Positions 1 to 51,577 are shown, numbered from the stretch's first letter. The stretch: DNA of 64,000 bases from GCF_055900595.2 NZ_CM148325.1; one strand, 5' to 3'. Translations and numbers: made by a program. The notes: generated by a model not told the origin, from the letters alone.

Positions 1-991
1 GTTGGTCGCTCATCCAGGCATCAATGTTAACGACGTCAATACGCGCCATCTCTTCTCGCGTACACAACCGCTGGAGATTAGCGCGAATATCTGCCGCCAG
101 GTTACGCGTAAAGGTCGTGAAAAGTACCTTCTTACCGGGTTTATCTACCAGACGCTGAGATAACCACCGCGCACGGTGCATTGCAACAACCGTTTTCCCT
201 GTACCTGCACCGCCCAGTACTCGTACCGGACCATTAGCGGGCGACTCCACCAGTTTTCGCTGGCTCGGGTGCAGAAATACACGCCATTTTTCTAAAGGCG
301 CATTAAGCATCTGCAATAGTTCCTGTTCATTTTCAACGACATGGAAGCGACGTTTACTTCGTTCAATCGCCTCCATAAAGTCGTTGGTATCAACAGGCTC
401 ATCACGATGATCGTTAAACTCTTCCAGCACTTCCTGGTAATCCAGCCCTTCTGCCAGCCAGTGCAGAGGTTCCCAGGCTTCTGCTGGCATTATGCTTTCA
501 AGTTGATTAAGCCCGGCTTCATCGGTAAGCGCCATCACCTGATCAATAAAGACAGGCGGCACACCCAGGGCCAGAATCTGTTCCGCGCTGTAAGCTGCGA
601 AGAGTTTCGGTTTATCAACCACCGTTTCCGCTGCCGGTTTGATATAGCTAATATCAATGACCTGAATCGCGCCAGTAACCGGGTGAATCGAACAATCATG
701 CCGCCGCGCCCAGTCATATGCTTCGTCGTGTTTATCCACCCACATCAGCATATACAGAGCACCCTGTTCAGGTTTCAGAACAATGCCGCGATAAGTTTGA
801 TCGATTCGCACCGAATGGACATTTTTACTGCGCGCATCGTGGATCTTTTCATAGTTAAGTCCATTACTGGTCGGGTCCTGACGGAATTTGGAGATGAATT
901 CCTGCACCTTTTTTTGCTGTGCTTTTGGGATCCGCGCGAATGCGCCCAGAAAACCATCAGAAAGTGCCACCTTGGGCGTTTGCACCGTCAT
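1..991 (-). CDS. SF1 (UvrD/Rep-like) P-loop ATPase/helicase, N-terminal part; C-terminus lies beyond the window start
   Basis: Minus-strand frame is open from ATG at 991..989 (MTVQTPKVALSDGFLGAF...) to position 1 with no stop; Walker A GGAGTGKTVVAMHRARW appears after a ~250-aa N-terminal region; start overlaps upstream stop as ATGA. Not in the ORF track because its stop is outside the window. Confidence 0.5.
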   Translation of the reverse strand, partial: MTVQTPKVALSDGFLGAFARIPKAQQKKVQEFISKFRQDPTSNGLNYEKIHDARSKNVHSVRIDQTYRGIVLKPEQGALYMLMWVDKHDEAYDWARRHDCSIHPVTGAIQVIDISYIKPAAETVVDKPKLFAAYSAEQILALGVPPVFIDQVMALTDEAGLNQLESIMPAEAWEPLHWLAEGLDYQEVLEEFNDHRDEPVDTNDFMEAIERSKRRFHVVENEQELLQMLNAPLEKWRVFLHPSQRKLVESPANGPVRVLGGAGTGKTVVAMHRARWLSQRLVDKPGKKVLFTTFTRNLAADIRANLQRLCTREEMARIDVVNIDAWMSDQ

Positions 992-3900
992 TTGTCACCT
1001 CCGGACAGATGTTGCAATGTAATTTCGTCAATTGGCCCGAATGCAACGTGCCAACCCCTGGTTGTGAATAATGGAATAAATTCTTGATTATCAATAATCA
1101 ATGCCCATTTTTGTGATGGCCAGGCGAGATCGGCTTCCGCAATAATTTCACCTTCATCATTTTGCAATTCGTAGCCGAGAGTCGGCGCAGAGAGAGAATG
1201 AGACTGAAGCAACGCGATCTCTTCAGCGCTTAATAAGCCAAACTCAATAATCTCAGCCCAACTTTCATCAGTCTCTGGTACTGCCTCTGGCGTTGCCGTA
1301 ACTTTAACGTCAACGCTTTCCTGCGGTAAATGCACGGCTTTACGGCTGGTAAAGGTCATATCCGGCAGGAACTGTAACAGGTTTACCAGTCGCCAGAAGC
1401 CATTGAGTCCCGCTTCATAACCGTCATCCTGCGTATAGCGATCGTCAAAACAGATATGCAAACGCAGCCAGCTGCGCATTTGTGCGACACTGGTCGTCGG
1501 TTTAATGGCTTGTTGTGGCAACACCGAAGCCAGCTCAATAAATTGCTGCGATGAGTTACAGCTATCGAGTAAACCACCAAAGACAAACGGTTCGTCTGGC
1601 AAAAGCTCTGCTAGCCGCCAGGCTGGCGCGTTTTCCTGCATTTCATAGGCATACTTTTGTTTCGTTCCCGCGTCCTGTGACTTCTTCACATCCAACCACA
1701 CCCAGGCATGTGCAGCAGCCATTCTCTGCCATAACTGCGTTCTTCCGCCCGGATCGGCGAGATAATCCAGCAGCAGTGCAAAACTGTTGCGTTCCCGGAA
1801 CGACGCTTCAAGGGCCGCAAAGTTGGTATCGTGAAACAGGTTATAAAACTTAGGCTGTTTCATATCCGGGTTATGCCCAAGCCCCAGGACATCCTGAACA
1901 TGTTTAAGCCCAGGCTCTTTGAGATCGGCCCACGTGACTGTCCACACCCAGAAATTATCGCTATCCCGAATCGCCTGGCGTTTTTGCACATCCTCTGCGA
2001 CGCTATTTTTGTGAAACGCAAAGCCATCAAGGAAAATAGCTACCGGTTTAATGGCATCAGACTGCATAAGCGGATATAGCACGTAATCCGGGCGACAAGG
2101 GATCCCCACTGCCTCTTTAGCGCCTAAATCCACCTGAGCTTTAAGATGCCAGCTCATCATCGGTTCGCTGCGGGTGTTAATAATCCACCCAGCGCCCTGA
2201 TGCGCGTAACTGCGACTGACAATCAGGTTTTTATTTTCTTGCAGGCAGCTAATAAACCGTTTTTCCAGCTCACTGCCCATCATGGCTTCGAGGGAAATGT
2301 TTTTGATGGAATCAATTACCCGTATCGAATCTCTTGCCTGCAAAATTTTCGCCAGCAAGAGACGCGCCTGATCGCGGGAGACATACTTCATGCGCCCACG
2401 GTCACGGTAAGCGTAAACGCAACGATAACAACCATCTTTATGCGTATCATGGTTGCAACTGCATTCCACTATCGCCTGATAGGCCAGTTCAAGTAATTTC
2501 AGCAAATTGTCGGGAGTGCGCATCAGCTCTTTAAGAGAACCAGTCCCCCCCGGGACGGTATCGTAAATCACCAGATACTGCCGCCAGGATTCGCCTTCAT
2601 TTTCCGGCTCGCGGTACACAACGCCTTTCAGGTGATCGACATTCCCCTTGAAGTAATGTTTAAGGCCGAGCTGGATCGCCGCCCCAAGAGAAGCCTCCAC
2701 GACACGGTCATTACTGTAACTGCTTACCGGGAGCAGAATTCGCAACGCTTCTGACTCCAGCTGGCGATAGAGATAGAGATAATCTTCGAACTTCGCCTTT
2801 TCCGGTTCCGTGCGATATTTGCAGCTCAAATCATGACGTGGTTCATGATCGCGAGGACGCTGTACCATGCCGCACCCCAGGCAAACTTTAAACCCGGTTC
2901 GCTTCTTCGCTTCTCCGGCAATCATCAACTCATTGGCATCATCCGCCATTTTGCCGAAGTTGATATCCCGCAGGGTGACTTTGCTTAAAAATTCAAAACC
3001 AAACGGAACTTCGCCTTCCTCAATCGCGTATGCCGCCGATACATCTTCTTTTTCGAAACTAACCAATAGCTGACGCTGGAAGAAAGCAGGTTCACGGCTG
3101 TCGCTCTCGTCGCTGATCTGGCTATCACGTGCGCTGGCGCGGGCATACACCTGGCGAAGTTTCAGCAGCGTGGTTTTTTGTCCGGCGTCGGCCCACCCCG
3201 GTGTGCCACATTTCGGGCAATATTTATGCTGGTCGCCCGTCTGGTCGATATTTTCGCTGTAGTTACAGTGGCTACAGATACGCCAGTTCTCCGGCTCAGA
3301 GACCTTCAGGTCTATCTGCTCAATTTCAACTTTATGCCCACCGGCATAGAAATTATTCAGCGGAGCCAGCTCAGCCAGCGCCGTTGATGCCGGGCGTTCA
3401 TATTCGAAAGTGGTGTTTTGATATTCACGCGCTTCCCCGCCTTCTTTACGCCGCCAGAGCACAGAACGTAACGTAATACCGGCTTCCGGAAAGGCGTAGT
3501 TAGGCAGCAGACCTTCATCCGTGAGGAAATTCAGCGTCTGCTTATTGTTGATTTGATTGACTAGCGCCATCAGCGCCTGCCGTTCTGAAGTTAACTCGCG
3601 CATATCGCTGTCAAAGTTTTGATCGCGCGGCGCGTTCTCCAGCTTATCGATACTGCGCTTGAGTTTATCGATGCGTGAACGCAGAGATTTGCGATCTTCC
3701 ACCAGCAGTTTTAACGCCTCTTCGATACGCTGCACCAGAGAGCGTTGTCCTGGCGCGCCCTGAAGATAAGACAACAACTGTTGGCGAGTTTCTGCGGCAA
3801 GATCGGGGAAGATCGCCGTAAATTGTGCAGCAATCTCCGCATGATGCTGTTCGATATATCTCAGTAAGTTATACGGAAAACCCGATTTACGCCCGAACTC

Positions 3901-6900
3901 CAGCTCATCCAGCATCTGTTTGACGTTTTTACAGATAGCGGATTCTGGTACACCGGTTTTCACCCAGTTATCCATACAAAAAGCTGCCAGCTGGCGTTCG
4001 AGAATAGCCGTTGCATTGAGGAAGACGCCAGGAGCCTGCACCTGGCCCTGCATCATCTCCAGCGGTTCTTCAAAGAAAAACTGATCGTGCGGGTTCCCTT
4101 CTGCCACGGTAATGTTTAACGCGTTACCATCTTTACGACCGGCGCGACCAATACGCTGCAAGTAGTTGGCCTGAGCAGGTGGGACAGAACAGAGTAAAAC
4201 GGTGGAAAGATCCCCAACGTCAATACCCATCTCCAGCGTCGGTGTTGCCGACAACAGGTTGATATTCCACGGTTGGTTGCCGCGGTAGAACGATTTTTCG
4301 GTGGCTTCGCGATCTTCACGGCTAAGCAGCCCCGTGTGTTCTGCGCCCTGCACGCGCGCGATGTCCATGTTCTCCCAACGCCAGGTCGCCATATTGTCGA
4401 CTTCCTGGTAACGACCTTCACAACGTAAAGAGAGACAAGGCGCATTACGCCACTGCCAGCCTTGATCGGCCGGAGCCCGGACAACCTCACGGCAACATGA
4501 ACAATTAAGCTGAACGACGTCACGGCTCACCACCAGCGCAGAAGGCACCAGTCCCCAGGCTTCACGCCCTTTGGTGTCAAAATCTTTTACTACTCCGGCT
4601 ATTTTCAACGCCGTAAACAGGCGTCGTAACACTGTTTCCGCAACGCTACTGATAAACAGATTATTGCCGTTACTCAGCGTGCGATTGATCCAATGCTGAT
4701 ACCAACTGGGGTTAGACTTCGCGCCAATCAGGCGATGGAAACCATTAATTTTTTCAAACGACGCATAAGCCGGTTTACGCGTTTTCGGACCGATAGAAGG
4801 CATATAGCGCGAGGTACGCTCTTTTTGCGTCATCATAAAGGTCGTGCCATCACGGCGATAACTTTCGAACGTCGGATGCATAACGGCCCCGGCCTGGCGT
4901 TGATACCAAATAACCCCCAGCGCCAGGTGCGCGACCTGCTCGACGCTCACACCGGACATCTCATCACCCAGCTCTTCACAAAGCTGTTGATGCAGGGCGG
5001 TAATTGCCGGATTAAAGCGTTCTTTATCCACTCCGGCAACGGCATAACCGGTGGCTTCCAGCGTACGTCCGATACGCGCGCGCAGGGTAAATTCGCTGTA
5101 CACCTCCCAGTCGAGGCGCAGGGAAACCAGCTCCGGCAGATCGGAGTTCTCCGCCAGTTTGCCTTCATTTTTCAGTGTCTGATAATCATTCAGCCACTGC
5201 ATATTTGGTGCGATGAAGTTCGCTGCAAAATGAGCATCGTCCGGTGAACGTTCACGCGTTTGTTGGCAAACACGCGCCGCGAACGCATCCAGCGGTAATG
5301 TCTCTTTTTCGCCAAGAACACTGGCGATTTGCCCACGAATCATCAGCGGCCAGGTACGGGCAGTAAAGAAGCTGGCACGATGCGCGGCGTCTTGTACCGA
5401 GTCAGAAAACGTAATCAGCTTTTTATGTTCGTTGAACTGGCTGCCATAAAGCTGGTGAATCATCACCGCCGACAGACTGGCAGCCCGTGACCCCAGAATC
5501 GAAATCCCCTGTTTGCTGTTGCAGTACGGGCATTCATTAGCAAACTCCAGCTCGTCCTTACGCTCTTTGAGCATATCCGGGATCAGTACCTGCAACAGTT
5601 CCGTATGACCGCAATGTCCACACTGGACGCTGGACTGTCGGTTCAGTTTCAGACAGATAGGGCACAGTTTCTGGTGTGCGCCACTGACCGCTTTTTCGTT
5701 GTTATCCGGGAAAGCAAGGACGATGGAGCGCCCTTTTTCAAAGAACTGGCGATAAATGCCGTCGAGGTCTGTTTCCAGCTGAACGCTTTGCCCATGACGC
5801 AGGCTGGCCCAGCCGGTTGCGTGGCAGTCACGGCAGTGGATAACCGGCAAATAGTGTTCGCGATCTTCCACCGCCACATCATCGGCAAACACCAGTCTCG
5901 GCGTTTTCGCCACGCTGGCGACCAGACGACGCATCTCACGAAGCCACAACTGGGAACGCAGTTGCACAAACGGCAACACCGGGCGCGCTTTCTTCGCCTG
6001 GAGACGTTTTTGCCGATCGTGTTCCGTTTCCGGTACTTCGAGACGTGCCTGCGCGATCAGCGCCAGAATGCTTTGCAGCACGCGTCGGGCATGGTCGGCG
6101 CTTTCTGCCAGCATGACCTGGAGATTTTCCAGACACTCTCGTTCAGAGAGGATCCCGCCTTGCAGATCATGGAGTAAGACATGCATCACGCTGTGGCGGC
6201 GTAACAGTGACCCCAGCGCAATACGCTTTTCGCGCCCGTCGTCGCTCTCCAGATCGTCCGGGAGTTGCAAGTCGCTGTCGGAGAACCACAAAGGGATTTG
6301 TCCGTTGAGATACGCCACCGGGGTAGCGTAACTCTGCGGGTCCAGCGCCGAAGCGACCTCCGGCCCCGGATACTGACTGTACGCAATGGCGTAATCCTGC
6401 AAGTACTCCGCTGCCGTGTAGCGATCTTCGCGAATAACGGCGTCATCGGTAAACGGCTGGTCAAAGATTGTTTTTGCGTAATCGAGCAGTTGCCCCAGTT
6501 CGTCGCCGACGGTAGCTGATGTCCCGACGCAGGCGAATCGTTGGTTATCCACACCTATGTGATGCTTCAGACGTCGCACCAGACAGGCCAGATCCGACCC
6601 TTGCGCGCCATCAAACGTATGCAATTCATCCACGACCAGGTAACGCAATGAACCGGGCTGGTTGTAACGCCAGAGCGGCTGATCGCCAGGGCGCATCAGT
6701 AGGTAGTCGAGCATTTTGTAGTTGGTCAACAGGATGTCCGGCGGGCTTTCGCGCAGCGTGTGCTTACAGGTAATGACCTTTTCTGCCGACATTTTTTTGC
6801 TGGGTTCGATTTCGCTGTCGCCGACAAACAATCCGACGGTCACCTTGCCATGCAGTTGTGGATCGCTGGCGATGGTTTTGGCGAAACGGCTGGCCTGATC

Positions 6901-7329
6901 GGTTGCCAGGGCGTTCATCGGGTAGATGATAATTGCTTTAACCCCGGCTTGTGACGCGCCCGCGCAGTGGTTGAGCAGCGGGAACATAAAGCATTCTGTT
7001 TTACCGGAGCCGGTACCGGTAGCGACCAGTGTCGGCTGTGGCGCGTCGCATCCCAGACGCTGAAATGCCCGGGCCTGATGCGCGTGCGGCGGGAACGGCA
7101 GCGTCAGATTAGGGAAAAAATTCAGCGGTAAGTCACTTTTACGAAACGGCAACTGGGCGGAAAGGTATGGTCCTTTCAGCAGCGTTTCGGGCTGGGCCAG
7201 AAATTGCTCCAGCATTGAGACATTATCGTTATTCTCACCGTTAAACAGCGGGCTGTTTAGCGGGAACGCCGCCCGTAAAAAGGCGGCAACGCTGTCGGCG
7301 ACCTGCCGACTGACAACGGACGGCAACAT
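988..7329 (-). CDS. Giant SF2 DEAD/DEAH-type helicase with Cys-cluster (Zn-ribbon/DUF1998-like) regions, DruE/DrmA-like, 2113 aa
   Basis: Motif I GTGSGKTE, motif II VVDELHTF, distant motif VI QRIGRAGR; several CxxC pairs (CRDCHATGW, CPICLK...CGHCGH, CSHC...CPKCG, CLGCG); start overlaps upstream stop (TGATG at 7327..7331). Confidence 0.65.
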   Translation of the reverse strand: MLPSVVSRQVADSVAAFLRAAFPLNSPLFNGENNDNVSMLEQFLAQPETLLKGPYLSAQLPFRKSDLPLNFFPNLTLPFPPHAHQARAFQRLGCDAPQPTLVATGTGSGKTECFMFPLLNHCAGASQAGVKAIIIYPMNALATDQASRFAKTIASDPQLHGKVTVGLFVGDSEIEPSKKMSAEKVITCKHTLRESPPDILLTNYKMLDYLLMRPGDQPLWRYNQPGSLRYLVVDELHTFDGAQGSDLACLVRRLKHHIGVDNQRFACVGTSATVGDELGQLLDYAKTIFDQPFTDDAVIREDRYTAAEYLQDYAIAYSQYPGPEVASALDPQSYATPVAYLNGQIPLWFSDSDLQLPDDLESDDGREKRIALGSLLRRHSVMHVLLHDLQGGILSERECLENLQVMLAESADHARRVLQSILALIAQARLEVPETEHDRQKRLQAKKARPVLPFVQLRSQLWLREMRRLVASVAKTPRLVFADDVAVEDREHYLPVIHCRDCHATGWASLRHGQSVQLETDLDGIYRQFFEKGRSIVLAFPDNNEKAVSGAHQKLCPICLKLNRQSSVQCGHCGHTELLQVLIPDMLKERKDELEFANECPYCNSKQGISILGSRAASLSAVMIHQLYGSQFNEHKKLITFSDSVQDAAHRASFFTARTWPLMIRGQIASVLGEKETLPLDAFAARVCQQTRERSPDDAHFAANFIAPNMQWLNDYQTLKNEGKLAENSDLPELVSLRLDWEVYSEFTLRARIGRTLEATGYAVAGVDKERFNPAITALHQQLCEELGDEMSGVSVEQVAHLALGVIWYQRQAGAVMHPTFESYRRDGTTFMMTQKERTSRYMPSIGPKTRKPAYASFEKINGFHRLIGAKSNPSWYQHWINRTLSNGNNLFISSVAETVLRRLFTALKIAGVVKDFDTKGREAWGLVPSALVVSRDVVQLNCSCCREVVRAPADQGWQWRNAPCLSLRCEGRYQEVDNMATWRWENMDIARVQGAEHTGLLSREDREATEKSFYRGNQPWNINLLSATPTLEMGIDVGDLSTVLLCSVPPAQANYLQRIGRAGRKDGNALNITVAEGNPHDQFFFEEPLEMMQGQVQAPGVFLNATAILERQLAAFCMDNWVKTGVPESAICKNVKQMLDELEFGRKSGFPYNLLRYIEQHHAEIAAQFTAIFPDLAAETRQQLLSYLQGAPGQRSLVQRIEEALKLLVEDRKSLRSRIDKLKRSIDKLENAPRDQNFDSDMRELTSERQALMALVNQINNKQTLNFLTDEGLLPNYAFPEAGITLRSVLWRRKEGGEAREYQNTTFEYERPASTALAELAPLNNFYAGGHKVEIEQIDLKVSEPENWRICSHCNYSENIDQTGDQHKYCPKCGTPGWADAGQKTTLLKLRQVYARASARDSQISDESDSREPAFFQRQLLVSFEKEDVSAAYAIEEGEVPFGFEFLSKVTLRDINFGKMADDANELMIAGEAKKRTGFKVCLGCGMVQRPRDHEPRHDLSCKYRTEPEKAKFEDYLYLYRQLESEALRILLPVSSYSNDRVVEASLGAAIQLGLKHYFKGNVDHLKGVVYREPENEGESWRQYLVIYDTVPGGTGSLKELMRTPDNLLKLLELAYQAIVECSCNHDTHKDGCYRCVYAYRDRGRMKYVSRDQARLLLAKILQARDSIRVIDSIKNISLEAMMGSELEKRFISCLQENKNLIVSRSYAHQGAGWIINTRSEPMMSWHLKAQVDLGAKEAVGIPCRPDYVLYPLMQSDAIKPVAIFLDGFAFHKNSVAEDVQKRQAIRDSDNFWVWTVTWADLKEPGLKHVQDVLGLGHNPDMKQPKFYNLFHDTNFAALEASFRERNSFALLLDYLADPGGRTQLWQRMAAAHAWVWLDVKKSQDAGTKQKYAYEMQENAPAWRLAELLPDEPFVFGGLLDSCNSSQQFIELASVLPQQAIKPTTSVAQMRSWLRLHICFDDRYTQDDGYEAGLNGFWRLVNLLQFLPDMTFTSRKAVHLPQESVDVKVTATPEAVPETDESWAEIIEFGLLSAEEIALLQSHSLSAPTLGYELQNDEGEIIAEADLAWPSQKWALIIDNQEFIPLFTTRGWHVAFGPIDEITLQHLSGGDK

Positions 7330-10300
7330 CAGGCGCTCTCCTTATCTTGTGCAAAGAACGCCCAGGCCACTTTGTAATCGTCTTCGCGATCCGGCTTGAT
7401 AAACGGAGCCTGCCAGGTGACGGTACGGCGCTCGCCTTCGTCGCTGCGGGTATAGTCATCAAAGGTGACGCTGACGGTACCGGTTTGCAGATGTTTGACA
7501 TCATCCCAGCCGATAGCCTGATCGGTGCAGTCACCGCCGGTCCAGTCCGGGCTGTCGACGTTAAAGACAAAGCCGTTTTTCAGGTCAGCTTTACGCGCAG
7601 TGCGAGGCAAGCCAACGCCCACCAGCCCTTTGCTTGGGGTAAAGATAATGCGACCGTTTTGATCGTACCAGGTATCCGCTTCGTACTGGCGCATCACCGG
7701 GAACTGAACGCGATAAATGGTAAGCAGTTCTTCGAGGGTTAACCCTAGCGCCTGCGCCACCAGTACGTCGATTTCCACCAGCGCCTGACGACGACTGTAG
7801 TCAGAGCGTAAGGCGCAGTTACGCTGCCACTCTGGGGTCAGATTGGTGAAGAAATCCTGGGGAAGCGGCGGGAGATCGCGGCTCCAGCGCTGGGTGTTGA
7901 AGTCTGGGGTGTAGCAGGATTGCCAGAGATCAGCGTAATCTTTCGTTAACACATTCAAAGCTAATGCTCTTGAGTTTGCACTCATTAACTCAACATAAGG
8001 GAAGCCACGCAATGTTGATTCATAAACATCCGCCCGCCCTGTTGTTTTCAAATAAAAATCAGCCACTATTGAATGGCAAAATGCAGAGAAACTTAGCAGG
8101 TTTATTGGCTCTCTAAATGTTGTTGAGAGTACAGGGTGTATATGAGCAACGTGCTTTGGAACTATGCTGGATATCATCGAGCGTTCTGATGATGCCCCAA
8201 ACATTCTTCGATTAACAAAACGATAATAGTCCGTCACCTTCCTCGGCTCGTCTTCATCCTGCTCTTTCCACGAAACCCGTGGGGTGCGCTTTGCATACTC
8301 CTGTGCATCACAGGCTGGAATATAGTTAGTGCGCGGCAAATAGTCGTCGGGCAGAGTTAGCAATTCTAGGTTATCGTATGCTTTATTCGTGTCACAAACC
8401 GCTCTAGGCGTATTGTAGAAAGGATTGCCAACAAAAAAATGAGGGCCAGACAAAACCCATTGTGATGCTTCTTCCGGGAACTGTGTATGTCGCTCAATTG
8501 TACCATCGCTTTGCTGATTAGTTTCATGCCACATTTCTAGAGAATAATATTGCCCCTGCAAATCACCTAATCGCCTAGGTTGTTTCGCAAACTTTTCAAG
8601 TACTGCAACCAATTGAGTAGCATGTAACGCAGGAAGACGGGCTTCATGTGCTGTAGTGCCAGCACTATCATAGAGACGCGAGAAAAGACCTAATTGCTTT
8701 AAATTTACATGCAAGACTCGATCGAAATGTCCCTGAAAATTCCATTTAACCTTTATTTTACCATCAATTTCAGTTTCTTCTTTTATCCCCGGAACAATGC
8801 CTTCCCCTTTATGTTCAAAACACGCATCAATAGTTTGAGGAATAAATAAATTTGCTATATTTGAGAATGCCACTATCTGAGAATAGGGGCCATACACATT
8901 AATGCTAAATAATGTCTGGTTATGCACCTCAGTGAATAATTTCGTTTCATTAATAAACTGAAAATGCGCCCTAAGCCTCGGATATACCGACGCACGCAGC
9001 TGCCCGCCTTTTGGGTCATCATAAATCCCTTCCGGGTGCAGGAACCCTGCCACGCCTTTCTCTGCCCCCAGACGCCAGGCCTGCGGCAGGAAGCATTTAT
9101 ACAAGTTGGTCTGCACCCCGCGCAGTACCGGGTAGTTCTGCTGCGCATTGAGGAAGTTTTGCATCCCTTCACAGCCTTCATACTCGCTGCGCCAGGCCGC
9201 TTCCAGCGCCGGGATCTGGTTAAAGGTATCAATACGCAACGTTGCCAGCTTCGATGCACTCAGCTTACGCAGCACAAATTCCGGCTCGTAATCACCCAGC
9301 ACGCCCGCTTCCTGCCATTCCACTTTCAGCCACGGCGGGTTTCCGAGCATCAGGTCAAAACCGCCACGCTCGGCAAACAAGTCGCAGAACTCCAGATCCC
9401 AGTGGAAGAAACGGTGCTGCTTTCTCAGGGCATCGACAATCGCCAGACGCGGCAAATGACGGAACAACACCTCGGTTTTCAGACGACCAGCAACGGAAAA
9501 CAGCGAAGACTCTTCTCGCAGCAGGCCGTCTTCGGCAAACAGATCGCCAGTGGTGTGCTCCGCAACTTCAGTGACTTTTTCCGTGATTACAATCCCGTCG
9601 AGCAGGGTTTCAATCTCAAACAACCAGGTGCCGCGATCCGGTAACTCATCGGCTTTGTCGATCGGCCAGAACCACAGCGCGCACCAGTAGTCCATCACCC
9701 AACGCAGCTTCTGGTAGGCGCTGTTATCTTCAAGACGACCGCTAAAGGTTTCATCTTTACTGCTCAGCGAAGAACGCGTCTGCTCGCTGTTTTCTGCCGG
9801 CCACACCGGGTAGCTGTCGGCGGTTTTCAGACGTTCTGCTTTAAGTTGCTGGCGATAGGTGTTCCACAGAGCTTCCACCTTTTCGCTGATACGCTGCACA
9901 TCAGCAATCTCATGCCCGGCAAAGCTTTTAATAAACTCTTTGCGCCAGCTGTCCAGGGCTTTGAAGTCATCCGGATAACGCTGCTTAACAGTTTTATCGC
10001 TGTAGTTAGCCATACCGCCGTCGGGCAGCAGGAAGTGAAAAATCTGCGTCTCTTCACGCGGCGTGTTCATCGCCAGTTCGACCGGCTCGCTGTTAAGCCA
10101 GCTCGGATCTTTGGCTTTTTTGTAGGTCAGTTCACTCTTGTTGAACACCTGACGGCGCGCGCCCACCAGTGAGTTACCGCAGTGCAGCTGGTAACCAAAC
10201 CACGGTACAAAGGCATCGCCACTGATGGCGTTCAACCACAGCGACACTTCCGCCAGTTCCACCGCCACCGGGTTTAAGTCCACGCCGAAAACGTTGTTGT

Positions 10301-12251
10301 CGGCAATGTACATTTTCACCCGCTGTAACTCCTGGGTGTAACGATCCTGCGGAATACGGCGACCTTCCGCCTGCTGCTTGTGGAACAGATACGCTTCCGC
10401 CAGCTGGTTGATGGCTTCGTTAAGGAACGCCGCGCTGCCCATCGCCGGTTCGCACACGGTGAGGTTTAAGATGGCATCAGCTTTGGCGTGCGGATCGCTA
10501 ATGGGATCAATCTGCTCCTTAAACAGTTCTTTCAGGGCATATTTAACCAGTGAGCGGGTCAGCACTTCCGGGGTGTAATAAGAGGCAGATTTCTCACGGT
10601 CGCGCCCGGCCATACGGTAGATAAAACTGCCTTTGCGGTGAATGCGCAGACTGCCGTCTTTCTCGTAGACCTTCTCGTCTTCGTGGTATTTGCCAATCTC
10701 ATCCTTACTGACGAAGTAACCCGTCTCCAGCTCGTTAAACTCTTCCCCGGCTTTCTTCACCTCGTAGAGATCTTCGCTGGCGAAGAATCCGCGATAGGAA
10801 AGCAGCGCCTCATACACCGCACCTAACTGGTTGATACCCAACTGGCGATAAGAAATACGTCCGCGGCGGTTAAAGCGCCCTTTGCCCGGGCGGCTTAACG
10901 ACATCGCCTGGATAATCTGTTGCAGGGTTTCGTTACGGAATACCACGCGGTTAAGAATGCGGGTGTTGTTGGCATCGAAAAGATGACTTTCCAGACGCGG
11001 GACGCTGAACTGATGACTATGGATGGTGATCCGGTCGCCGCTCTCCAGGTCACTCTGTATTTTCACGCCGCCGTTGTAGCCTTCGCGCACCAGTTTAAAC
11101 AGCATATTCAGGCTGTCGTGGAAGTAGCGCCCGTTGCGATCTTCTTCGCTGGTCAGCGGGATCATCTCCAGATCGCGCAACGTTTCCAGGCTGTAACCTT
11201 GCAGATAGGTTTTGGCGGTCATTGGCGCATAACCCAGCTCCGGGCGCGCTTCAATGTAGAACAGGAACAGCAGGCGGTACATGTAACGCAGACATTCGCG
11301 GCTCAGTTCATCCGGGTCCACCGCACGGTTACCGGTATAGTTTGCCAGGCCACGGTCGATCAGATAATGCATCGCTTCGTTGCCCAGCAGCTCAATACTT
11401 TCGCGCAGGGCATATTTCAGATCTTCCGAAACACCAAACGCATGTTTGTGCGAATTGTCATCCAGCGAGTCAAGATAAGGTGCCCCACTGCCCGGCAGCA
11501 GCGAATCTTTATGTAGCAACACTGCCGTCGCTTTCAGCGTATCCGTTTCACGACGACTTAAAATCTCTTCAAAATCAAAACGTAGCAGACGGTTTTGCGC
11601 CCACTTAGTACGGTCCAACAACAATAGCTGACGGTTACCGAGCAGCAGCACAAAACGCGGCGGTTCATTTTGAGTGAAGACCGCCGTAGAGAGCAGATCC
11701 TGCCAGCTGCGATATTCACCGTTGGCTTTTTTGCGCAGGCTGTCGCGCTTATGTTTGTCGGTATCCGCCGGGAATTGCGCGGTCAGTAAAGAGAGCGCCA
11801 GCGGATCCAGCGTTCCTTCTTCCTGATCGTGTGCTTCAACAATCCACAGCCACGGGCTACCGTCAGTGCTGTTGTAACGCGCCAGTACCGGCAGTGGTGT
11901 ATCGTCATCCAGCATTTGGATCTGCGGCGTAATTTCGTAGCCCAGCGCCTTTAACAATGGCTGCCAGCGATTACGTTGATCGGCCAGACGCTGCGGGATC
12001 TGACGCTGTTTTTCGTGCTCGGCAAGTTTGCGGAAAAACTCAGTCGCCAGACTGTTAAACTGGTTCCACGGAGCGCGGTATCCCGGCTCTACGTCTTTGC
12101 CCTGTTCACGAGCGGCACGCTCCGCTTCACGCGCTGCATTTTCCTGGGCTATCCAGGGTTCCAGCACATCGCGGATATCACTGGTGAATACCTCACCCAA
12201 ATAGTGGTTAGAGTAAAATTCGTTTTCGTTATTAATACCGACCAGCGCCAT
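7329..12251 (-). CDS. Large N6-adenine DNA methyltransferase (Eco57I/type IIG-like gamma class), 1640 aa
   Basis: AdoMet motif I-like VCEPAMGSAAFLNEA; catalytic-type motif GNPPWLK; HCGNSLVG motif; long N- and C-terminal extensions; start 2 nt after upstream stop. Confidence 0.65.
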   Translation of the reverse strand: MALVGINNENEFYSNHYLGEVFTSDIRDVLEPWIAQENAAREAERAAREQGKDVEPGYRAPWNQFNSLATEFFRKLAEHEKQRQIPQRLADQRNRWQPLLKALGYEITPQIQMLDDDTPLPVLARYNSTDGSPWLWIVEAHDQEEGTLDPLALSLLTAQFPADTDKHKRDSLRKKANGEYRSWQDLLSTAVFTQNEPPRFVLLLGNRQLLLLDRTKWAQNRLLRFDFEEILSRRETDTLKATAVLLHKDSLLPGSGAPYLDSLDDNSHKHAFGVSEDLKYALRESIELLGNEAMHYLIDRGLANYTGNRAVDPDELSRECLRYMYRLLFLFYIEARPELGYAPMTAKTYLQGYSLETLRDLEMIPLTSEEDRNGRYFHDSLNMLFKLVREGYNGGVKIQSDLESGDRITIHSHQFSVPRLESHLFDANNTRILNRVVFRNETLQQIIQAMSLSRPGKGRFNRRGRISYRQLGINQLGAVYEALLSYRGFFASEDLYEVKKAGEEFNELETGYFVSKDEIGKYHEDEKVYEKDGSLRIHRKGSFIYRMAGRDREKSASYYTPEVLTRSLVKYALKELFKEQIDPISDPHAKADAILNLTVCEPAMGSAAFLNEAINQLAEAYLFHKQQAEGRRIPQDRYTQELQRVKMYIADNNVFGVDLNPVAVELAEVSLWLNAISGDAFVPWFGYQLHCGNSLVGARRQVFNKSELTYKKAKDPSWLNSEPVELAMNTPREETQIFHFLLPDGGMANYSDKTVKQRYPDDFKALDSWRKEFIKSFAGHEIADVQRISEKVEALWNTYRQQLKAERLKTADSYPVWPAENSEQTRSSLSSKDETFSGRLEDNSAYQKLRWVMDYWCALWFWPIDKADELPDRGTWLFEIETLLDGIVITEKVTEVAEHTTGDLFAEDGLLREESSLFSVAGRLKTEVLFRHLPRLAIVDALRKQHRFFHWDLEFCDLFAERGGFDLMLGNPPWLKVEWQEAGVLGDYEPEFVLRKLSASKLATLRIDTFNQIPALEAAWRSEYEGCEGMQNFLNAQQNYPVLRGVQTNLYKCFLPQAWRLGAEKGVAGFLHPEGIYDDPKGGQLRASVYPRLRAHFQFINETKLFTEVHNQTLFSINVYGPYSQIVAFSNIANLFIPQTIDACFEHKGEGIVPGIKEETEIDGKIKVKWNFQGHFDRVLHVNLKQLGLFSRLYDSAGTTAHEARLPALHATQLVAVLEKFAKQPRRLGDLQGQYYSLEMWHETNQQSDGTIERHTQFPEEASQWVLSGPHFFVGNPFYNTPRAVCDTNKAYDNLELLTLPDDYLPRTNYIPACDAQEYAKRTPRVSWKEQDEDEPRKVTDYYRFVNRRMFGASSERSMISSIVPKHVAHIHPVLSTTFREPINLLSFSAFCHSIVADFYLKTTGRADVYESTLRGFPYVELMSANSRALALNVLTKDYADLWQSCYTPDFNTQRWSRDLPPLPQDFFTNLTPEWQRNCALRSDYSRRQALVEIDVLVAQALGLTLEELLTIYRVQFPVMRQYEADTWYDQNGRIIFTPSKGLVGVGLPRTARKADLKNGFVFNVDSPDWTGGDCTDQAIGWDDVKHLQTGTVSVTFDDYTRSDEGERRTVTWQAPFIKPDREDDYKVAWAFFAQDKESA

Positions 12252-12253
12252 GA

Positions 12254-15112
12254 TTAACCCTCCGCTCCGGTGATAACAGCAATTACCTGAATGTAGGGTT
12301 CTTTTTCAGTCGTCATGGTGTCCTCAATCCATTCGATATAGCTGTCAAAATTGTGTTCGATTTCGCGTTGTCTCTGCTCTTTACGGCTCTGCTTAACTGA
12401 CAATTGCTGTTTGTTATCGGCAAAATCCAGCTCAAGTTGGCTCAACTGCCGCCCACGCAAAACGTCCAGCTTTTGCAGATGCTCATTCAGTTGCTGGTTA
12501 ATGTGCGTTTCAAACGCATTCCGATCATGGATGAATACCTCCCGGGCATGAGCAATAGCCGCTTCCAGTAAATCCTGCTGGCGCTGGTGATTACGATCTT
12601 TACCGCCGCTGTTAGTCAGCTTGTTACTCAACTGCGGATGACGTTGTAAAAACTCAGCGAATGGCTGACTGCCGATTAGCGATTCACGGTTAAAGCTCAC
12701 CACTATCCACGGGTTCACCATCGGATGTGATTTACGGTTCGGGAATAACCCGGAAAGAATGAAGTGATCTTCATCGGGTTCAAGCAGGTATGGCAGACGG
12801 ATAACCGGTGCCTGATGACGACCAAAAGCCGAAGAGATTTTATCGTCCAGCCACTGCACTACCGGGTTGATTTGCCAGAGATACTGCACATCGGGCCAGG
12901 CATGTTGCTCACCGCGAGCGCGTGCAATCGCGTCGGTGATGACGGTTTTATCCTGACTTAAAAAGAGCTGCCAGTTCTCCGGGGCGATTTCAGGCGGTAG
13001 CTGGTTGAAGCGGCGGCGTAACTCCTCCGGTGCCACCAGCGACAAGGTATTATCAGGCAAGGTTTCATACTGGATAGTTTGACCACTGGCTTTCAGGTAA
13101 CCCAATGCTCTTTCACAGTACGCCTGTTCGCTGGCAAACAAGCTGGTGTCTGTTTCGATGACCATTGAGGCATCGCTGGAAACCGCACTGCATATTTCGC
13201 CAAACAGATCGTGTTCGGCGCTTTCCGAGACGTTGCTGTTCAGCAGTTGATCAAACAGGCTGGCACCATCATCCTGCATCATGAACTCTGCAACCTGCTC
13301 TTCTTCCTCTTCCTGGGTAAATTTGCCGGTAAACTCCGAACTGTCCCCAATGTTCTTCTGCGCCTGTTCGTCTTTGTTGATCAACACTTCCAGTACGCGC
13401 ATATCGCCATTGATCTGCGGTTCGCTGGCCTCGGTAAGCAGATAGCGGATTTGAGGCTGATGTTTTTGCCCATAGCGGTCAATACGCCCGTTACGTTGCT
13501 GGAATACCATCAACGACCACGGAATATCAAAGTGAATCATTTTGTGGCTAAGGTGATGCAGGTTGATCCCTTCAGATGCCACATCCGAACAAACCAGAAG
13601 ACGCAACGGCGACTGCGTTTTACCAAAGGCTTCTACGGTTTCCATCAACACCGTATCGCCCTGATCGCCGCGCAGCGTGGCGATCTGATCATCTTTCAAT
13701 TTCAGATCCGCTCGCAGTTGCTGTTCGAGGAACTCCAGCGTTTTAATGCTTTCGGTGAAGATCACCAGGCGATCTTCCGTGTTATTGGCTTTCCAGGCGA
13801 GGTCTTTTCGGATGGTGTCGAGCAGCAACTGGTATTTGCTAAACTGGCTGGCATCAATGTTATTCAGCGCCAACAGCAATGACTCCAGTTCGTTGATCTG
13901 GCTCTGGCTATTATGATCTTTACGGCTCTCAAGACGCTTCAGACGATTAGCCACTACGCTGGCACACGCCATCGGGCTGGAAAATAGCGCTTTTTCGAGG
14001 GTTATCTTGAACAGACGACCTTTGTTAGACTGGGCCTGTTCATCGTCATCATCACGGAACTGACTCTCAACCAGGCGACGGTATGCTTCTTCTTCGGCAC
14101 CGGATGCCAGGCGAGTCAGTTTGACAATATTGCGCTCGGGGAACTCGCCAGACATCTGATCTTTCACGTCTTTTTTGAAGCGACGGACAACCAGATTTTT
14201 ATCGGCAAAGTCGGCGTATTCATACTCTTTCGGGTTGGCGATCGCCGTCGGGTCAAGCATGTTCATCAGGCTGGCAAAACTTTCAGCTTTACCATCATGC
14301 GGCGTTGCTGAAAGCATAATCAGCGTATCGCTGCGCCCGGCGAGCAGTTTTGCCAGTTTACTGCGTAACGAACTGGTTCCACGTTCTGCGACGTTATGGG
14401 CCTCATCAATGACAATAATATCCCACCAGGCATTTTCCAGATGGTGACGATATTCAATATCTTGTTTCAGCGTATCGATGGAGATAATGGTCTTGTCAAA
14501 ATAGTGGAACGGGTTGTGGTTGGTAGGGATGCGGTTACGCACTTTTTGTAAACCAGCAGAATCCAGGCGGGTCAATGGGATCGCAAAACGGCTCCAGAAC
14601 TCCTTCTGGAATTGTGTCAGCATCGATTTAACCGCCAGAACCAGAATACGTTTTCCGCGCCCACGACGGATCAGTTCCGAAACCAGAATACCCGCTTCCA
14701 GCGTTTTACCCAGACCGACAGCGTCGGCAATGAGTATCCGCTGACGCGGTTGTGCCAGCGCCATCCGCGTAGGATCGAGCTGAAACGGCATGGAATCCAT
14801 CGCCGCCAGATGTCCAAAATGGACTTTACTGTCTGTCGGTACGCGTTGGCGTAACTGACTTTCAATATACAACTGTGCCGCCTGATAATTGGCGGATTCA
14901 TCTTCCACCAAATGCGTTTTTGCGGGATCAAGGATCTCTACTTTTTGTTCCAGTTTGGTCAGAAATAACCCTTCTTTACCGCGCACAAGCTCTGAAATAC
15001 CATCGCAGGTCAGCAAATACCCACCATCACCACTGTCATCCGCCCGGCGAATACGCCATTCGGCATCACGAATAACCACCCGCATACCAGGTGCATAATT
15101 TTGCTTATTCAT
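12254..15112 (-). CDS. SNF2-family (SF2) helicase/ATPase, 952 aa
   Basis: Walker A ADAVGLGKT, DEAH box IVIDEAHNV, helicase-C region with QQRNGRIDRYGQ; first gene of the coupled operon. Confidence 0.7.
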   Translation of the reverse strand: MNKQNYAPGMRVVIRDAEWRIRRADDSGDGGYLLTCDGISELVRGKEGLFLTKLEQKVEILDPAKTHLVEDESANYQAAQLYIESQLRQRVPTDSKVHFGHLAAMDSMPFQLDPTRMALAQPRQRILIADAVGLGKTLEAGILVSELIRRGRGKRILVLAVKSMLTQFQKEFWSRFAIPLTRLDSAGLQKVRNRIPTNHNPFHYFDKTIISIDTLKQDIEYRHHLENAWWDIIVIDEAHNVAERGTSSLRSKLAKLLAGRSDTLIMLSATPHDGKAESFASLMNMLDPTAIANPKEYEYADFADKNLVVRRFKKDVKDQMSGEFPERNIVKLTRLASGAEEEAYRRLVESQFRDDDDEQAQSNKGRLFKITLEKALFSSPMACASVVANRLKRLESRKDHNSQSQINELESLLLALNNIDASQFSKYQLLLDTIRKDLAWKANNTEDRLVIFTESIKTLEFLEQQLRADLKLKDDQIATLRGDQGDTVLMETVEAFGKTQSPLRLLVCSDVASEGINLHHLSHKMIHFDIPWSLMVFQQRNGRIDRYGQKHQPQIRYLLTEASEPQINGDMRVLEVLINKDEQAQKNIGDSSEFTGKFTQEEEEEQVAEFMMQDDGASLFDQLLNSNVSESAEHDLFGEICSAVSSDASMVIETDTSLFASEQAYCERALGYLKASGQTIQYETLPDNTLSLVAPEELRRRFNQLPPEIAPENWQLFLSQDKTVITDAIARARGEQHAWPDVQYLWQINPVVQWLDDKISSAFGRHQAPVIRLPYLLEPDEDHFILSGLFPNRKSHPMVNPWIVVSFNRESLIGSQPFAEFLQRHPQLSNKLTNSGGKDRNHQRQQDLLEAAIAHAREVFIHDRNAFETHINQQLNEHLQKLDVLRGRQLSQLELDFADNKQQLSVKQSRKEQRQREIEHNFDSYIEWIEDTMTTEKEPYIQVIAVITGAEG

Positions 15113-15335: not shown

Positions 15336-18300
15336 TTATCCAGCGATAACATAACTCCTAAGGTCATTACCCGGGGCAACAGCTCGCGCTCGCGTGTTTG
15401 CCAGCCGTTCAACTTGCTGCGGTACTCGCAGAGCAAAATCAAAGAAGGTGTCTTCAATACAGCGCCAGTAGCTAAGCCCCATGTCGAGCAGGACATAATG
15501 CTGACTGCCATCGCTGAAGGTGACTGTCAGTTCTCGTCCATGCTCCGTACTCTGGTTATCCCCCGTTAACCAGCTAATTGCTCCCGGCCACGCAGGCCCC
15601 AGATATCCTTCTTCAAGTAAAGTGGTCACAACCTGCTGACGATCTTCCTCATTAAGCCACGCGTTATAGAGAGCGTTGTGTTGGCGAGAGTTGTAATCCA
15701 ATTTTTTGACGCAAACAGTGAGGCTGGCGCGTTCCGCCATTCCCTGTTCAACCAGCTCGGTTAAGATTTCACCTAACATACGCGCCGTGAATGGGCTATT
15801 AAGATAACGATCGCTGTACTCAACATGCGTTATCTCTTTGTGGCGGGTAAATGCCTGCTTCCAGCCAGCGTGCTGTTGCGTGACTAACGACCAGAAACGC
15901 GAACCAAACCCTTCCAGCGGCCCGTCCAGTTGCTCGCAGAGGTTGATGCGCACCGCCCCGGTGGGTAAGGCGGGCAGTAAATCTTCTGCACTTAAGGTCT
16001 GACCCGAGAAGGTTTTTCCGGACGTTCCTTTAAGTGTCACTACTGGTGAGGACGCACTTTGTCCCCATAATTCACCAGGTGCAACGGTAGCGCTGTCGTC
16101 TGCGGCCCACTGTTGGCTTTGCCCTTCGCGAGTCACCTGCGCAAGCCAGCGCCCCTTTCCTTGCATGAGTTGCGCAGTGGCAATGGATTTCACTTGTAAG
16201 CGTCCTCCCGGCATCGCCGCCAACGCGGAAAGCTGATGTCTGGAGCTATCAGTTAAGTTTTCCAGCGGCGTGGCCACCAGCAACTCAACATTCCCACCGG
16301 AGGAGGCAAACTGGAGCAACTCTTTAAATAATGGCCATTGGGCAAAGTCCCACTGTTCCTGCGGCCCCGCAAGAACCAGCGAGCAGGAGTCATAAATCTC
16401 GCTGTTCAGGCATTGCGCAATACGTAAACTCAGAGGGTTAGTTTCAACCCGGCTACCATCGACGAAGTACTGATATTCTGGCGCGAGGTTAAGTCGCTGC
16501 AACCGTACATTGGTAAGCAGGGTTAATGCATGGTGACGATCTAATCTGTTGACATAATGCTGACTGTCGTAGCTGAGCAAGCAGTGGTGACAGAATTTAT
16601 CGCAACTGCAATCGAGCAATTTTCTGGCGTAATTAAAGACATCAGCCCAATGGTCGATCAATTGCACTGCATAACCTGCACCACCCGCATTATTGTCGTA
16701 AATGAAGATGGAATATCCGGTATAGCCATTGATATCGCGCGCTTGCTGCGTCGTCACGCCCAGCTCAGTATTTTCGATACCCAATTTATGCGCTAACCCT
16801 TCACGCAAAGCGACCGCAAGGGAACGCGCGGCAACCTCATCACGGATCAACAGGCCATTATCATCATTGAGTTGCAGCTCAACCATATCTGTACGACTGC
16901 TATACCCCAACCACAGATCTTTATGCACATGACCGTGGCACAATTTATTGCTCCCCTGACGATCGTTACTGCCCCCTCGCAACAGGTAATGCGTATTTTC
17001 CCGCTCTGGGTTCTTTAGATTTTCAGGGGTACGCTGGGGTTGAGTTTGAGATTCTGCCCGACCACATGAGAGGCAAATTGCGTAGCCGTGCCCAAATTCC
17101 CCTTCACTGAAGTGGAACAATTCCCCACTATGGCTAAAACGGTAACGTCCTAGCCCAGCATCGGGTAAAGAAACCCACACCGAAGACGGTACAAGAACAC
17201 GTGGATCTTTCCAGGGAAGTTGTGCAGGCATGGATACATCATTATGTGCCTGATAACGAATATCTGTCGCAAAACCAACAGGCTGTAAATAACGCTTCAC
17301 ATCAAGTTGCTGTATATCCGCTTTGCAGTGACTACATTCGACAGGATGGGTAGCACTGGTTGCCCCCGCACCACATTTACGGCAATGCCAGAACCACGGA
17401 ATATGATGATCGCCTGACAGCTCCTGCCCGCTGGCAAGTACCTTGCCAAGCATAATGCCCGAGGAACGATATACTTTTCCGCCCAATACCACATCTGCAC
17501 CAGGCGCATACTCGCGTAATGCTGTAGGTAGATCACGGCAGGGCAATTTTTCAATACGACGAGAAAAGCTTTCTCCCCCTTCATTAGGGTCAGCCTGAGT
17601 AGCTTTTATTGCGCGACGTTTTTCCAGCTCATCTGCCGTCAGATAATTGAAATTGACGACACCAACCGGGAAACCATGCCCTGGCAGGAACGCTTCACTA
17701 ATGAGTTTAGAAAACAGATATGCACCGCGATAATCACGAAGCTGATAAGCGATGGCTTTACCTGCTGGCGTTTCTTCCCACGCGCTGTTATCCGCTTTCA
17801 ACGCTTCGATATTTTCCAACAGTATCGCAAGTTGGCTTCTCCAGCGGATATCAACCTGCTGCATCATTGCTTGTGTGCGGGTCAAGAGCTGGGTTGCCGT
17901 CAATGACATCAGGACGGTTCCCTGAGTAAGGCGTTTAAGTTTATCCGCCAGCTGATCGGCCTGGTTATTTAACCAATGGAGAAAACGAAGACACTGGCTC
18001 TCATCACCTTCAAAGAACCATTTGCAACTCAGTTTTGTCGCATCAGGAACTTCAGCTCGTAAAAACAGACCTAAAACCAGGGCATTAACATGTCGTTGAA
18101 CAATACTGCTGCTCCCAAAACGAACCCGTGGCGCACTGGCAGTAGTGTTGAACGCCCAGAGGGGGTCTTTGAATACCTCCATTCCATGCGCCGTGTTTTT
18201 ACATAACGTAATGGCAGCAGATGCACTCTCTCCACGTCGACCCGCGCGGCCTGCACGCTGCAAATAATTTGCCGGAGCTGGAGGAACGTTGTTCATTGCC

Positions 18301-34525: not shown

Positions 34526-34610
34526 TGGTGCCGAAGGCCGGACTCGAACCGGCACGTATTTCTACGGTTGATTTTGAATCAACTGCGTCTACCGATTTCG
34601 CCACTTCGGC
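34526..34610 (-). tRNA. leuX: tRNA-Leu (anticodon CAA)
   Basis: Reverse complement reads GCCGAAGTGGCGAAATCGGTAGACGCAGTTGATTCAAAATCAACCGTAGAAATACGTGCCGGTTCGAGTCCGGCCTTCGGCACCA, 85 nt with CCA end and CAA anticodon in the loop. Confidence 0.9.
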
Positions 34611-51385: not shown

Positions 51386-51577
51386 AAAAAATCCCTGAAT
51401 TAAAAAATCCATTGATATAACTTATATATACAGACAGTAAAATGTTCTGCCACGTTACAATACTCTTATCAGTAATAGGCTGGCAAAAACTTTATTACTT
51501 TATAAGTCGCTTGCGCACGTAAGAAGAGAGTGGTATTAAACAAATGTATAATTACTTTATTTTTATTGGGTTAAACT

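Follow-up and report, generated by a model that had tools for sequence, protein, structure and literature searches.

ArmB of an ARMADA type II defence operon: domain map of a 1640-residue adenine methyltransferase with two hypervariable modules as putative specificity determinants

A 64,000-nucleotide stretch of NZ_CM148325.1 (assembly GCF_055900595.2), referred to here in its full length as the window, carries on its minus strand a 1640-codon open reading frame (ORF) that is almost certainly armB of an ARMADA type II system (armA-armB-armC-armD), in which it encodes the DNA N6-adenine methyltransferase. The gene and the system are already described in two 2025 preprints, by Bell et al. (bioRxiv 10.1101/2025.09.15.676423) and in a study of O-island 172 of enterohaemorrhagic Escherichia coli (EHEC; bioRxiv 10.1101/2025.09.22.677730). 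New here are the domain map of ArmB and a two-module, low-GC, mosaic region of putative specificity; neither a domain map nor a placing of armB variation within the protein is found in the available text of the published ARMADA work. The explanation that best covers the observations as a whole, and which we consider probable, is that of an ARMADA II ArmB working through a self-marking specificity mechanism.

Identity of the ORF and its operon

A first-pass annotation of the window had placed a 1640-residue adenine methyltransferase at positions 7329-12251, and both coordinates and length were recovered in the ORF list and in the translation, which contained 1640 codons and 0 internal stops. 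A GGAGG Shine-Dalgarno sequence is located 5' of the ATG, and a chance origin of the frame was dismissed because it stays open over 4.9 kb in DNA of about 50% GC. The stop of armB and the start of armC share 1 nt. The genes armA to armD all run on the minus strand, each stop overlapping or adjoining the next start; this context was absent from the first-pass annotation.

Bell et al. (10.1101/2025.09.15.676423) present ARMADA as a DISARM-related antiviral defence array. Its type II has a strict order, composed of ArmA (BrxHII-like SNF2 protein), ArmB (PglX-like methyltransferase), ArmC (YprA-like helicase with a C-terminal Vsr-type nuclease) and ArmD (GajB-like UvrD helicase), and the same order was found in the window. 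The fused OB-CON-DUF1998 module on a YprA-family helicase, expected of ARMADA II, is present in ArmC, which has DruE-like PADLOC matches and Pfam matches to Helicase_C and to MZB (PF09369, E 8.4e-13, at approximately ArmC residues 1549-1638). ArmD is partial in the window; Pfam matched UvrD-helicase at residues 241-320 alone, and residues 1-240, the site of the expected RelE-like N-terminus, were without a Pfam match. The gene is annotated at full length in strain EC42405, which contains the same row of genes from armD to zorE under generic RefSeq names.

The identity of ArmB is secure since several observations agree on it: the gene order, the overlapping stops and starts, the domains of the partner proteins, the Druantia III, Zorya II and tRNA-Leu neighbours (Table 1), the residues G605 and N971 at the exact positions of the published mutants, and the 88-95% identity to proteins of E. 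coli, Salmonella, Klebsiella, Serratia and Enterobacter found in the database search. The best database match was 95% identical overall, and a cluster of O157:H7 proteins (P0062, 473 members) showed 90% identity to the window protein. DNA related to armB was detected in 525 of 5426 complete E. coli genomes (~10%), and the RefSeq label of the homologues is 'class I SAM-dependent DNA methyltransferase' (SAM, S-adenosylmethionine).

According to Bell et al. (10.1101/2025.09.15.676423), protection is lost on deletion of any single one of the four arm genes, and the ATPase motifs of ArmA and ArmC are also required for defence. Deletion mutants of armB were built in both preprints and lost defence (10.1101/2025.09.15.676423, 10.1101/2025.09.22.677730). 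In the former, the ArmB substitution N971A, in the NPPW motif, abolished protection, while G605A, in the GxG of the SAM site, caused only a partial reduction. ArmB-dependent phage defence is thus documented for homologues with about 90% identity, and by likeness it would extend to the window allele. The ARMADA II loci of E. coli NCTC 12900, EDL933 and ATCC 8739 share with the window the gene order, the neighbours, the length class and the G605 and N971 residues at about 90% identity, whereas the window allele differs from those of the published strains in both hypervariable modules.

Methyltransferase core and domain map of ArmB

The homologue search covered 1.84 billion cluster representatives, of which 1295 matched at E<=1e-30; the full-length ones matched ArmB over its entire length, and two alignments (A1 and A2) of 50-55 homologues, 34-64% identical overall, were built. 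Most full-length representatives have 1550-1700 aa and conservation spans the whole length of ArmB (80 homologues), so that the unusual size attributed to the protein in the first-pass annotation did not hold up. Its size is ordinary for its class, and DISARM DrmMI, BREX PglX and type IIG enzymes are similarly built. One metagenomic homologue of 3104 aa (P0201) contains ArmB-like residues 1-1580 and about 1500 further residues. It was considered as a methyltransferase-helicase fusion and rejected, as the additional residues matched none of the island proteins and none of the PADLOC models.

Sequence comparison revealed little of the domain structure. Pfam was nearly blind to ArmB, giving weak and split Eco57I matches, and searches of the PDB with the sequence and with a profile of alignment A2 returned 0 matches even at E<=1, relatives being found only by fold comparison. 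PADLOC matched the model REase_MTase_IIG (PDLC03614) at E 6.6e-288 over residues 98-1558, and DrmMI profiles down to E 5e-57. Structures were predicted for residues 1-600 (pLDDT, predicted local distance difference test, 85.5) and for residues 541-1640 (AlphaFold2, pLDDT 89.9, predicted template modelling score 0.86). Of the checks proposed with the first-pass annotation, domain annotation with Pfam yielded little, and structure prediction led to the related folds; the domain map is given in Table 1.

The N-lobe of the methyltransferase contains the motifs SYYTPE (residues 556-561), motif I EPAMGSAAF (601-609, nt 10425-10451), GVDLNP (656-661) and GNSL (692-695), followed at residues 970-974 by motif IV, GNPPW, whose NPPW is the sole [NDS]PP[YFW] motif in the protein. 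The order SYYTPE, EPAMGSAAF, GVDLNP, GNPPW and then a recognition region is that of gamma-class enzymes. Among the 50-55 homologues EPA.GS.AF and GNPPW are invariant or nearly so, with GNPPW in 55/55, which makes NPPW a true motif IV and not a fortuitous match. In Foldseek comparisons the model of residues 541-1640 matched E. coli BrxX and Salmonella PglX (E ~1e-11, ~1040 columns), and next CamA, M.BseCI and M.TaqI (E 4e-11 to 1e-7). From the predicted model, residues 541-1640 comprise a gamma-class N6-adenine methyltransferase and, after it, a DNA-recognition region, in agreement with the adenine methyltransferase proposed at first. Of the solved structures, those of BREX PglX/BrxX, CamA and DrdV come nearest to ArmB. 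The SAM-binding and catalytic motifs are invariant in a deep family, which argues that catalysis is retained, and ArmB is predicted to transfer methyl groups to adenine N6.

The wide spacing of the motifs noticed in the first-pass annotation was borne out, with 360 residues between CEPAMGSAAFL (600-610) and NPPW (971-974), and it is explained by residues 706-950, an insertion of about 245 residues, mostly helical, that separates motif III from motif IV. The Pfam Eco57I match (PF07669) is split accordingly, protein residues 652-738 corresponding to model positions 1-25 and residues 938-978 to positions 48-88, which indicates a large insertion within the catalytic domain. Helices of the insertion were modelled with high pLDDT at model residues 213-345 (protein 753-885), and family members share the insertion, with FHFLLPDGGM and VMDYWCALWFWP among its conserved stretches.

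About 590 residues of unknown function had been said to precede the core. The length is right, with 599 residues before motif I, but a fold could be assigned to them: a restriction-endonuclease-like domain followed by an HsdM-N-like helical domain. The fold of the N-terminal region matched DrdV, BpuSI and MmeI, and PglX is likewise built. The MmeI-type D-X9-E-X-K register is degenerate among 81 homologues, with D130 in 28%, an acidic residue at E139 in 75%, and lysine not among the five commonest residues at position 141. Judged from these residues, the N-terminal domain probably has no catalytic activity, like that of PglX. The suggestion that the extra length represents additional domains was therefore well founded, and these plausibly serve recognition and scaffolding.

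Two hypervariable modules

The EHEC preprint reported that island diversity among 426 genomes lies mostly within armB (10.1101/2025.09.22.677730), and by sequence comparison this diversity is placed here in two modules of the protein. An alignment of the window protein and its 120 closest database relatives (n=121) showed 97-100% identity across ArmB except in two blocks, at approximately residues 1100-1300 and 1340-1460. With an 85% identity threshold block 1 fell into at least 13 types and block 2 into at least 15, which occurred in 33 combinations; the types of block 2 are mutually 30-60% identical. The GC content is 0.393 in block 1 and 0.447 in block 2, compared with 0.53-0.58 in the conserved parts of armB. 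Strain EC42405 is 99% identical to the window over the shared 28 kb except for 280 nt of block 2 (7938-8217) that gave no blastn match, an allele swap limited to that block.

Such mosaic variation, in two blocks of low GC, is what is classically seen where recombination exchanges target-recognition domains. As a separate observation, the low GC of both blocks (window 7857-8969) suggests their import from a different gene pool.

We tentatively propose, with rather more doubt than attaches to the mechanism described below, that ArmB is the programmable specificity subunit of ARMADA, in which the two exchangeable modules would jointly define the motif that is methylated and read for restriction. 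Recombination could then produce dozens of specificities on a nearly identical scaffold.

Relation to BREX, DISARM and type IIG systems

ArmB resembles BREX, DISARM and type IIG enzymes in build, and probably in working. Assignment to each of these groups was considered and rejected. For BREX PglX, the NCBIfam models BREX_1_MTaseX and BREX_6 gave 25 bits (cutoff 500) and 27.5 bits (cutoff 900), and none of the BREX partners PglZ, BrxC, BrxB and BrxL was found in PADLOC scans of the island. The BREX PglX/BrxX structures (PDB 9ewz, 8q56, 8c45, 8zek) have about 11% sequence identity to ArmB. The latter is larger by about 440 residues, extends further at the N-terminus and contains the 245-residue insertion between motifs III and IV.

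DISARM DrmMI is also a large PglX-like gamma-class protein with an equally long N-terminus (profile 539-723 corresponding to ArmB 538-701), and it is paired with a SNF2 helicase (DrmD, as ArmA here) and a YprA-family helicase. However, its profiles match ArmB partially, with 191 bits compared with 957 bits for the ArmB-like IIG model. A class 1 DISARM was rejected on the neighbouring genes as well: ArmA scored 350 bits with NCBIfam DISARM_DrmD, under the 610-bit cutoff, DUF1998 is fused into ArmC with no separate DrmB, and PADLOC and NCBIfam scans of the island ORFs detected no DrmC or other member of the PLD-nuclease family. The ARMADA nuclease is Vsr-like and located in ArmC, and ArmB is essential for ARMADA defence, whereas single DISARM genes are dispensable.

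The type IIG/IIL enzymes MmeI, DrdV and BpuSI share with ArmB an endonuclease-fold N-terminus, a helical connector, a gamma-class methyltransferase and a target-recognition domain, in the same order. ArmB differs from them in its insertion and in being about 600-700 residues longer; membership of the MmeI family was rejected since the fold is present but the catalytic motif is not conserved, and defence depends on three helicase partners. CamA, M.BseCI and M.TaqI superpose on ArmB in their catalytic core and in the placing of the C-terminal DNA-recognition domain, but these proteins have 380-580 residues and are without the N-terminal extension, the insertion and the helicase partners.

Proposed mechanism and alternatives

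On balance we lean towards a self-marking mechanism with ArmB as the specificity subunit. ArmB would be the sequence-reading subunit, and its two C-terminal modules (1095-1305 and 1340-1465) would bind a DNA motif that is short and probably asymmetric. On host DNA the gamma-class domain would flip the target adenine and methylate it, providing a self mark; on unmodified invading DNA the same recognition would license the ArmA SNF2 translocase, the ArmC YprA helicase-nuclease and the ArmD UvrD-like helicase, which would break this DNA down or block it. DrmMI of Serratia sp. SCBI, the closest relative that has been characterised, produces N6-methyladenine at the asymmetric sequence ACACAG. Deletion of armB causes loss of defence, so that by analogy the methyltransferase would be needed for restriction too, as in BREX (PglX), type I and type III systems.

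Several points weigh against this scheme. Neither ARMADA preprint, in its available text, reports methylation by ArmB or a target motif, and the word 'methylation' does not occur in the main text of Bell et al. (10.1101/2025.09.15.676423). The partial loss with G605A and complete loss with N971A suggest that methyl transfer itself may not be required for restriction. Assigning the modules to DNA contact rests on the pattern of variation and on overall fold likeness, not on residue-level superposition with a DNA complex. Purely by inference, we regard three regions, the endonuclease-like domain at the N-terminus, the helical region and the 245-residue insertion, as scaffolds on which the partners assemble, most likely with no catalytic activity of their own. 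Finally, 75-88% of homologues retain E139, D213 and K216, which leaves a small chance of a non-canonical nuclease site.

Literature searches for methylomes of ARMADA-carrying strains, and of O157:H7, EDL933, Sakai or ATCC 8739, found nothing usable. Single-molecule real-time methylomes of the O145:H28 strains RM13514 and RM13516 contain only GATC plus CTGCAG/DTGCAG. Carriage of armB by these strains could not be shown; RM13516 is probably without it and RM13514 is ambiguous, their fim-proximal and tRNA-Phe islands carry other cargo, and chimeric-query searches for armB were confounded by insertion sequence elements and tRNA/integrase paralogues. Since carriage was not established, these methylomes were not used and count neither way.

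In a quite improbable reading, ArmB would be a type IIG restriction-modification enzyme complete in itself, like MmeI and DrdV, cutting near its site with its own N-terminal PD-(D/E)xK domain, the helicases being accessory. It agrees with the best PADLOC models, REase_MTase_IIG over nearly the full length, with the N-terminal fold matches to DrdV, BpuSI and MmeI, and with the conserved E139, D213 and K216. Yet the MmeI register is lost at D130 and at position 141, the PADLOC/REBASE label reflects sequence similarity and not an assay, and Bell et al. (10.1101/2025.09.15.676423) place the predicted active Vsr-type nuclease in ArmC and find that no defence is obtained unless all four genes are present and the ATPase motifs of ArmA and ArmC are intact. 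It is also unlikely, if a little less so, that ArmB writes no self mark and that its methyltransferase fold is a base-flipping sensor or scaffold triggering ArmA, ArmC and ArmD, self and non-self being distinguished by other cues, for example DNA ends, intermediates of replication or the structure of phage DNA, an idea put forward for Druantia III. The contrast between the SAM-site mutant G605A and the adenine-pocket mutant N971A (10.1101/2025.09.15.676423) would suit such a sensor, as would the lack of a reported methylation motif in the available text of either preprint, and deletion of the DISARM methylases gives no autoimmunity either. On the other side, a deep family keeps every SAM-binding and catalytic motif invariant, DrmMI and PglX, which are homologues, do methylate, and the hypervariable modules best fit a mark-and-read system in which specificity is matched between modification and restriction.

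That ArmB is an orphan or regulatory methyltransferase which happens to lie in a defence island is hardly tenable. The generic RefSeq label, given alone, would allow it, but armB is translationally coupled to armA and armC within a conserved gene order, and published genetics already refute it: deletion in two independent studies, or N971A, abolishes defence (10.1101/2025.09.15.676423, 10.1101/2025.09.22.677730). The N971A result is also the NPPW mutagenesis proposed with the first-pass annotation.

Neighbouring genes and the defence island

The features of the window and the domains of ArmB are listed in Table 1. The Druantia III pair is located directly upstream of the arm operon in the same direction. 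Bell et al. (10.1101/2025.09.15.676423) found ARMADA-Druantia-Zorya islands at tRNA-Leu and tRNA-Phe genes, and in EDL933 the armABCD genes of O-island 172 (z5899-z5902) are described as the dominant defence of the strain, in synergy with Druantia III (10.1101/2025.09.22.677730).

Table 1. Position of the defence genes in the window and of the domains within armB
Feature	Position (nt)	Strand	Description	Basis
armD, 5' part (gene crosses window edge)	1..991	-	UvrD/GajB-like helicase	Walker A GAGTGKT in translation
armC	988..7329	-	2113-aa YprA-family DEAD/DEAH helicase, MrfA Zn-binding (DUF1998) domain, C-terminal nuclease region	
armB	7329..12251	-	1640-aa PglX/DrmMI-like predicted N6-adenine DNA methyltransferase of ARMADA type II, ATG start	
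ArmB residues 1466-1640	7332..7856	-	conserved C-terminal domain (RRQALVEIDVLVA..LGLTLEEL..Y..QFPV)	conservation, high pLDDT
ArmB residues 1340-1465, module 2	7857..8234	-	hypervariable, GC 45%, second putative specificity module	
ArmB residues 1095-1305, module 1	8337..8969	-	hypervariable, beta-rich, GC 39%, putative target-recognition domain	entropy profile
ArmB residues 951-1094	8970..9401	-	motif IV GNPPW (NPPW at nt 9330-9341) and rest of methyltransferase fold	
ArmB residues 706-950	9402..10136	-	insertion of ~245 residues, mostly helical, separating motifs III and IV	
ArmB residues 541-705	10137..10631	-	methyltransferase N-lobe	Pfam MmeI_Mtase, N6_Mtase, Eco57I
ArmB residues 321-540	10632..11291	-	helical HsdM-N-like region, conserved LG.NQLGAVYE (471-481)	
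ArmB residues 1-320	11292..12251	-	N-terminal alpha/beta domain, restriction-endonuclease-like fold and helices, degenerate catalytic motif	
armA	12254..15112	-	952-aa SNF2/BrxHII/DrmD-like helicase	PADLOC DrmD, E 1.5e-99
druE, Druantia type III	15336-21659	-		PADLOC DruE3, 2173 bits
druH, Druantia type III	21650-25009	-		PADLOC DruH3, 2545 bits
zorA, zorB, zorE, Zorya type II	25221..28694	+	divergent	PADLOC; RefSeq annotation of EC42405 homologue
tRNA-Leu(CAA)	34526..34610	-	gene adjoining island	ARAGORN

Three other ORFs were observed between zorE and the tRNA-Leu gene. One of 309 aa (30251-31180, plus strand) matches NCBIfam NF045808, a phosphorothioated-DNA-binding restriction endonuclease, with 438 bits and is a further modification-dependent nuclease in the island. 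Beside it is a 216-aa ORF (29521-30171, minus strand) with weak PADLOC matches of the type IV restriction kind. A 681-aa ORF of about 33% GC (31799-33844, minus strand) abuts the tRNA-Leu gene within the defence island; searches of PADLOC, NCBIfam and Pfam gave 0 matches to it with a threshold as loose as E<=10, and it could be an undescribed defence or island gene. In the core-genome flank, ORFs of 407 aa (50189-51412) and 525 aa (53861-55438), both on the minus strand, lie in low-GC stretches (0.38-0.41) and gave 0 NCBIfam matches at E<=1e-5.

To the right of zorE, window positions 28884-29567 match EC42405 sequence from the 5' part of nanM and its surroundings. In that strain block 2 of armB is wholly different, and nanM, unlike in the window, flanks the island on the side of armD. 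Between the tRNA-Leu gene and the defence genes of the window, no integrase ORF was seen. The position of the nanM fragment and the lack of an integrase ORF indicate that the island is arranged differently between strains, and suggest that it may be immobilised in the window. In the O145:H28 strains RM13516 and RM13514 the tRNA-Phe island contains espL2, nleB, nleE and efa1, and in RM13516 it runs directly into nanM and fim. This continuity places the ~130-kb cadC-leuX segment elsewhere in RM13516, pointing to a large inter-island rearrangement.

Implications

ARMADA II is reported as the dominant phage-resistance determinant of EHEC O157:H7 (10.1101/2025.09.22.677730), and the confinement of ArmB variation to two swappable modules offers a direct way to its recognition motifs. 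If the programmable-subunit proposal is true, the module combinations would be a natural swap set for decoding the recognition rules, and DNA from one lineage of E. coli, Salmonella, Klebsiella or Serratia would be foreign to the ARMADA island of another. Knowing that the variation is confined in this way could also help to predict which phages or plasmids are restricted by a given strain, and bears on phage therapy against EHEC.

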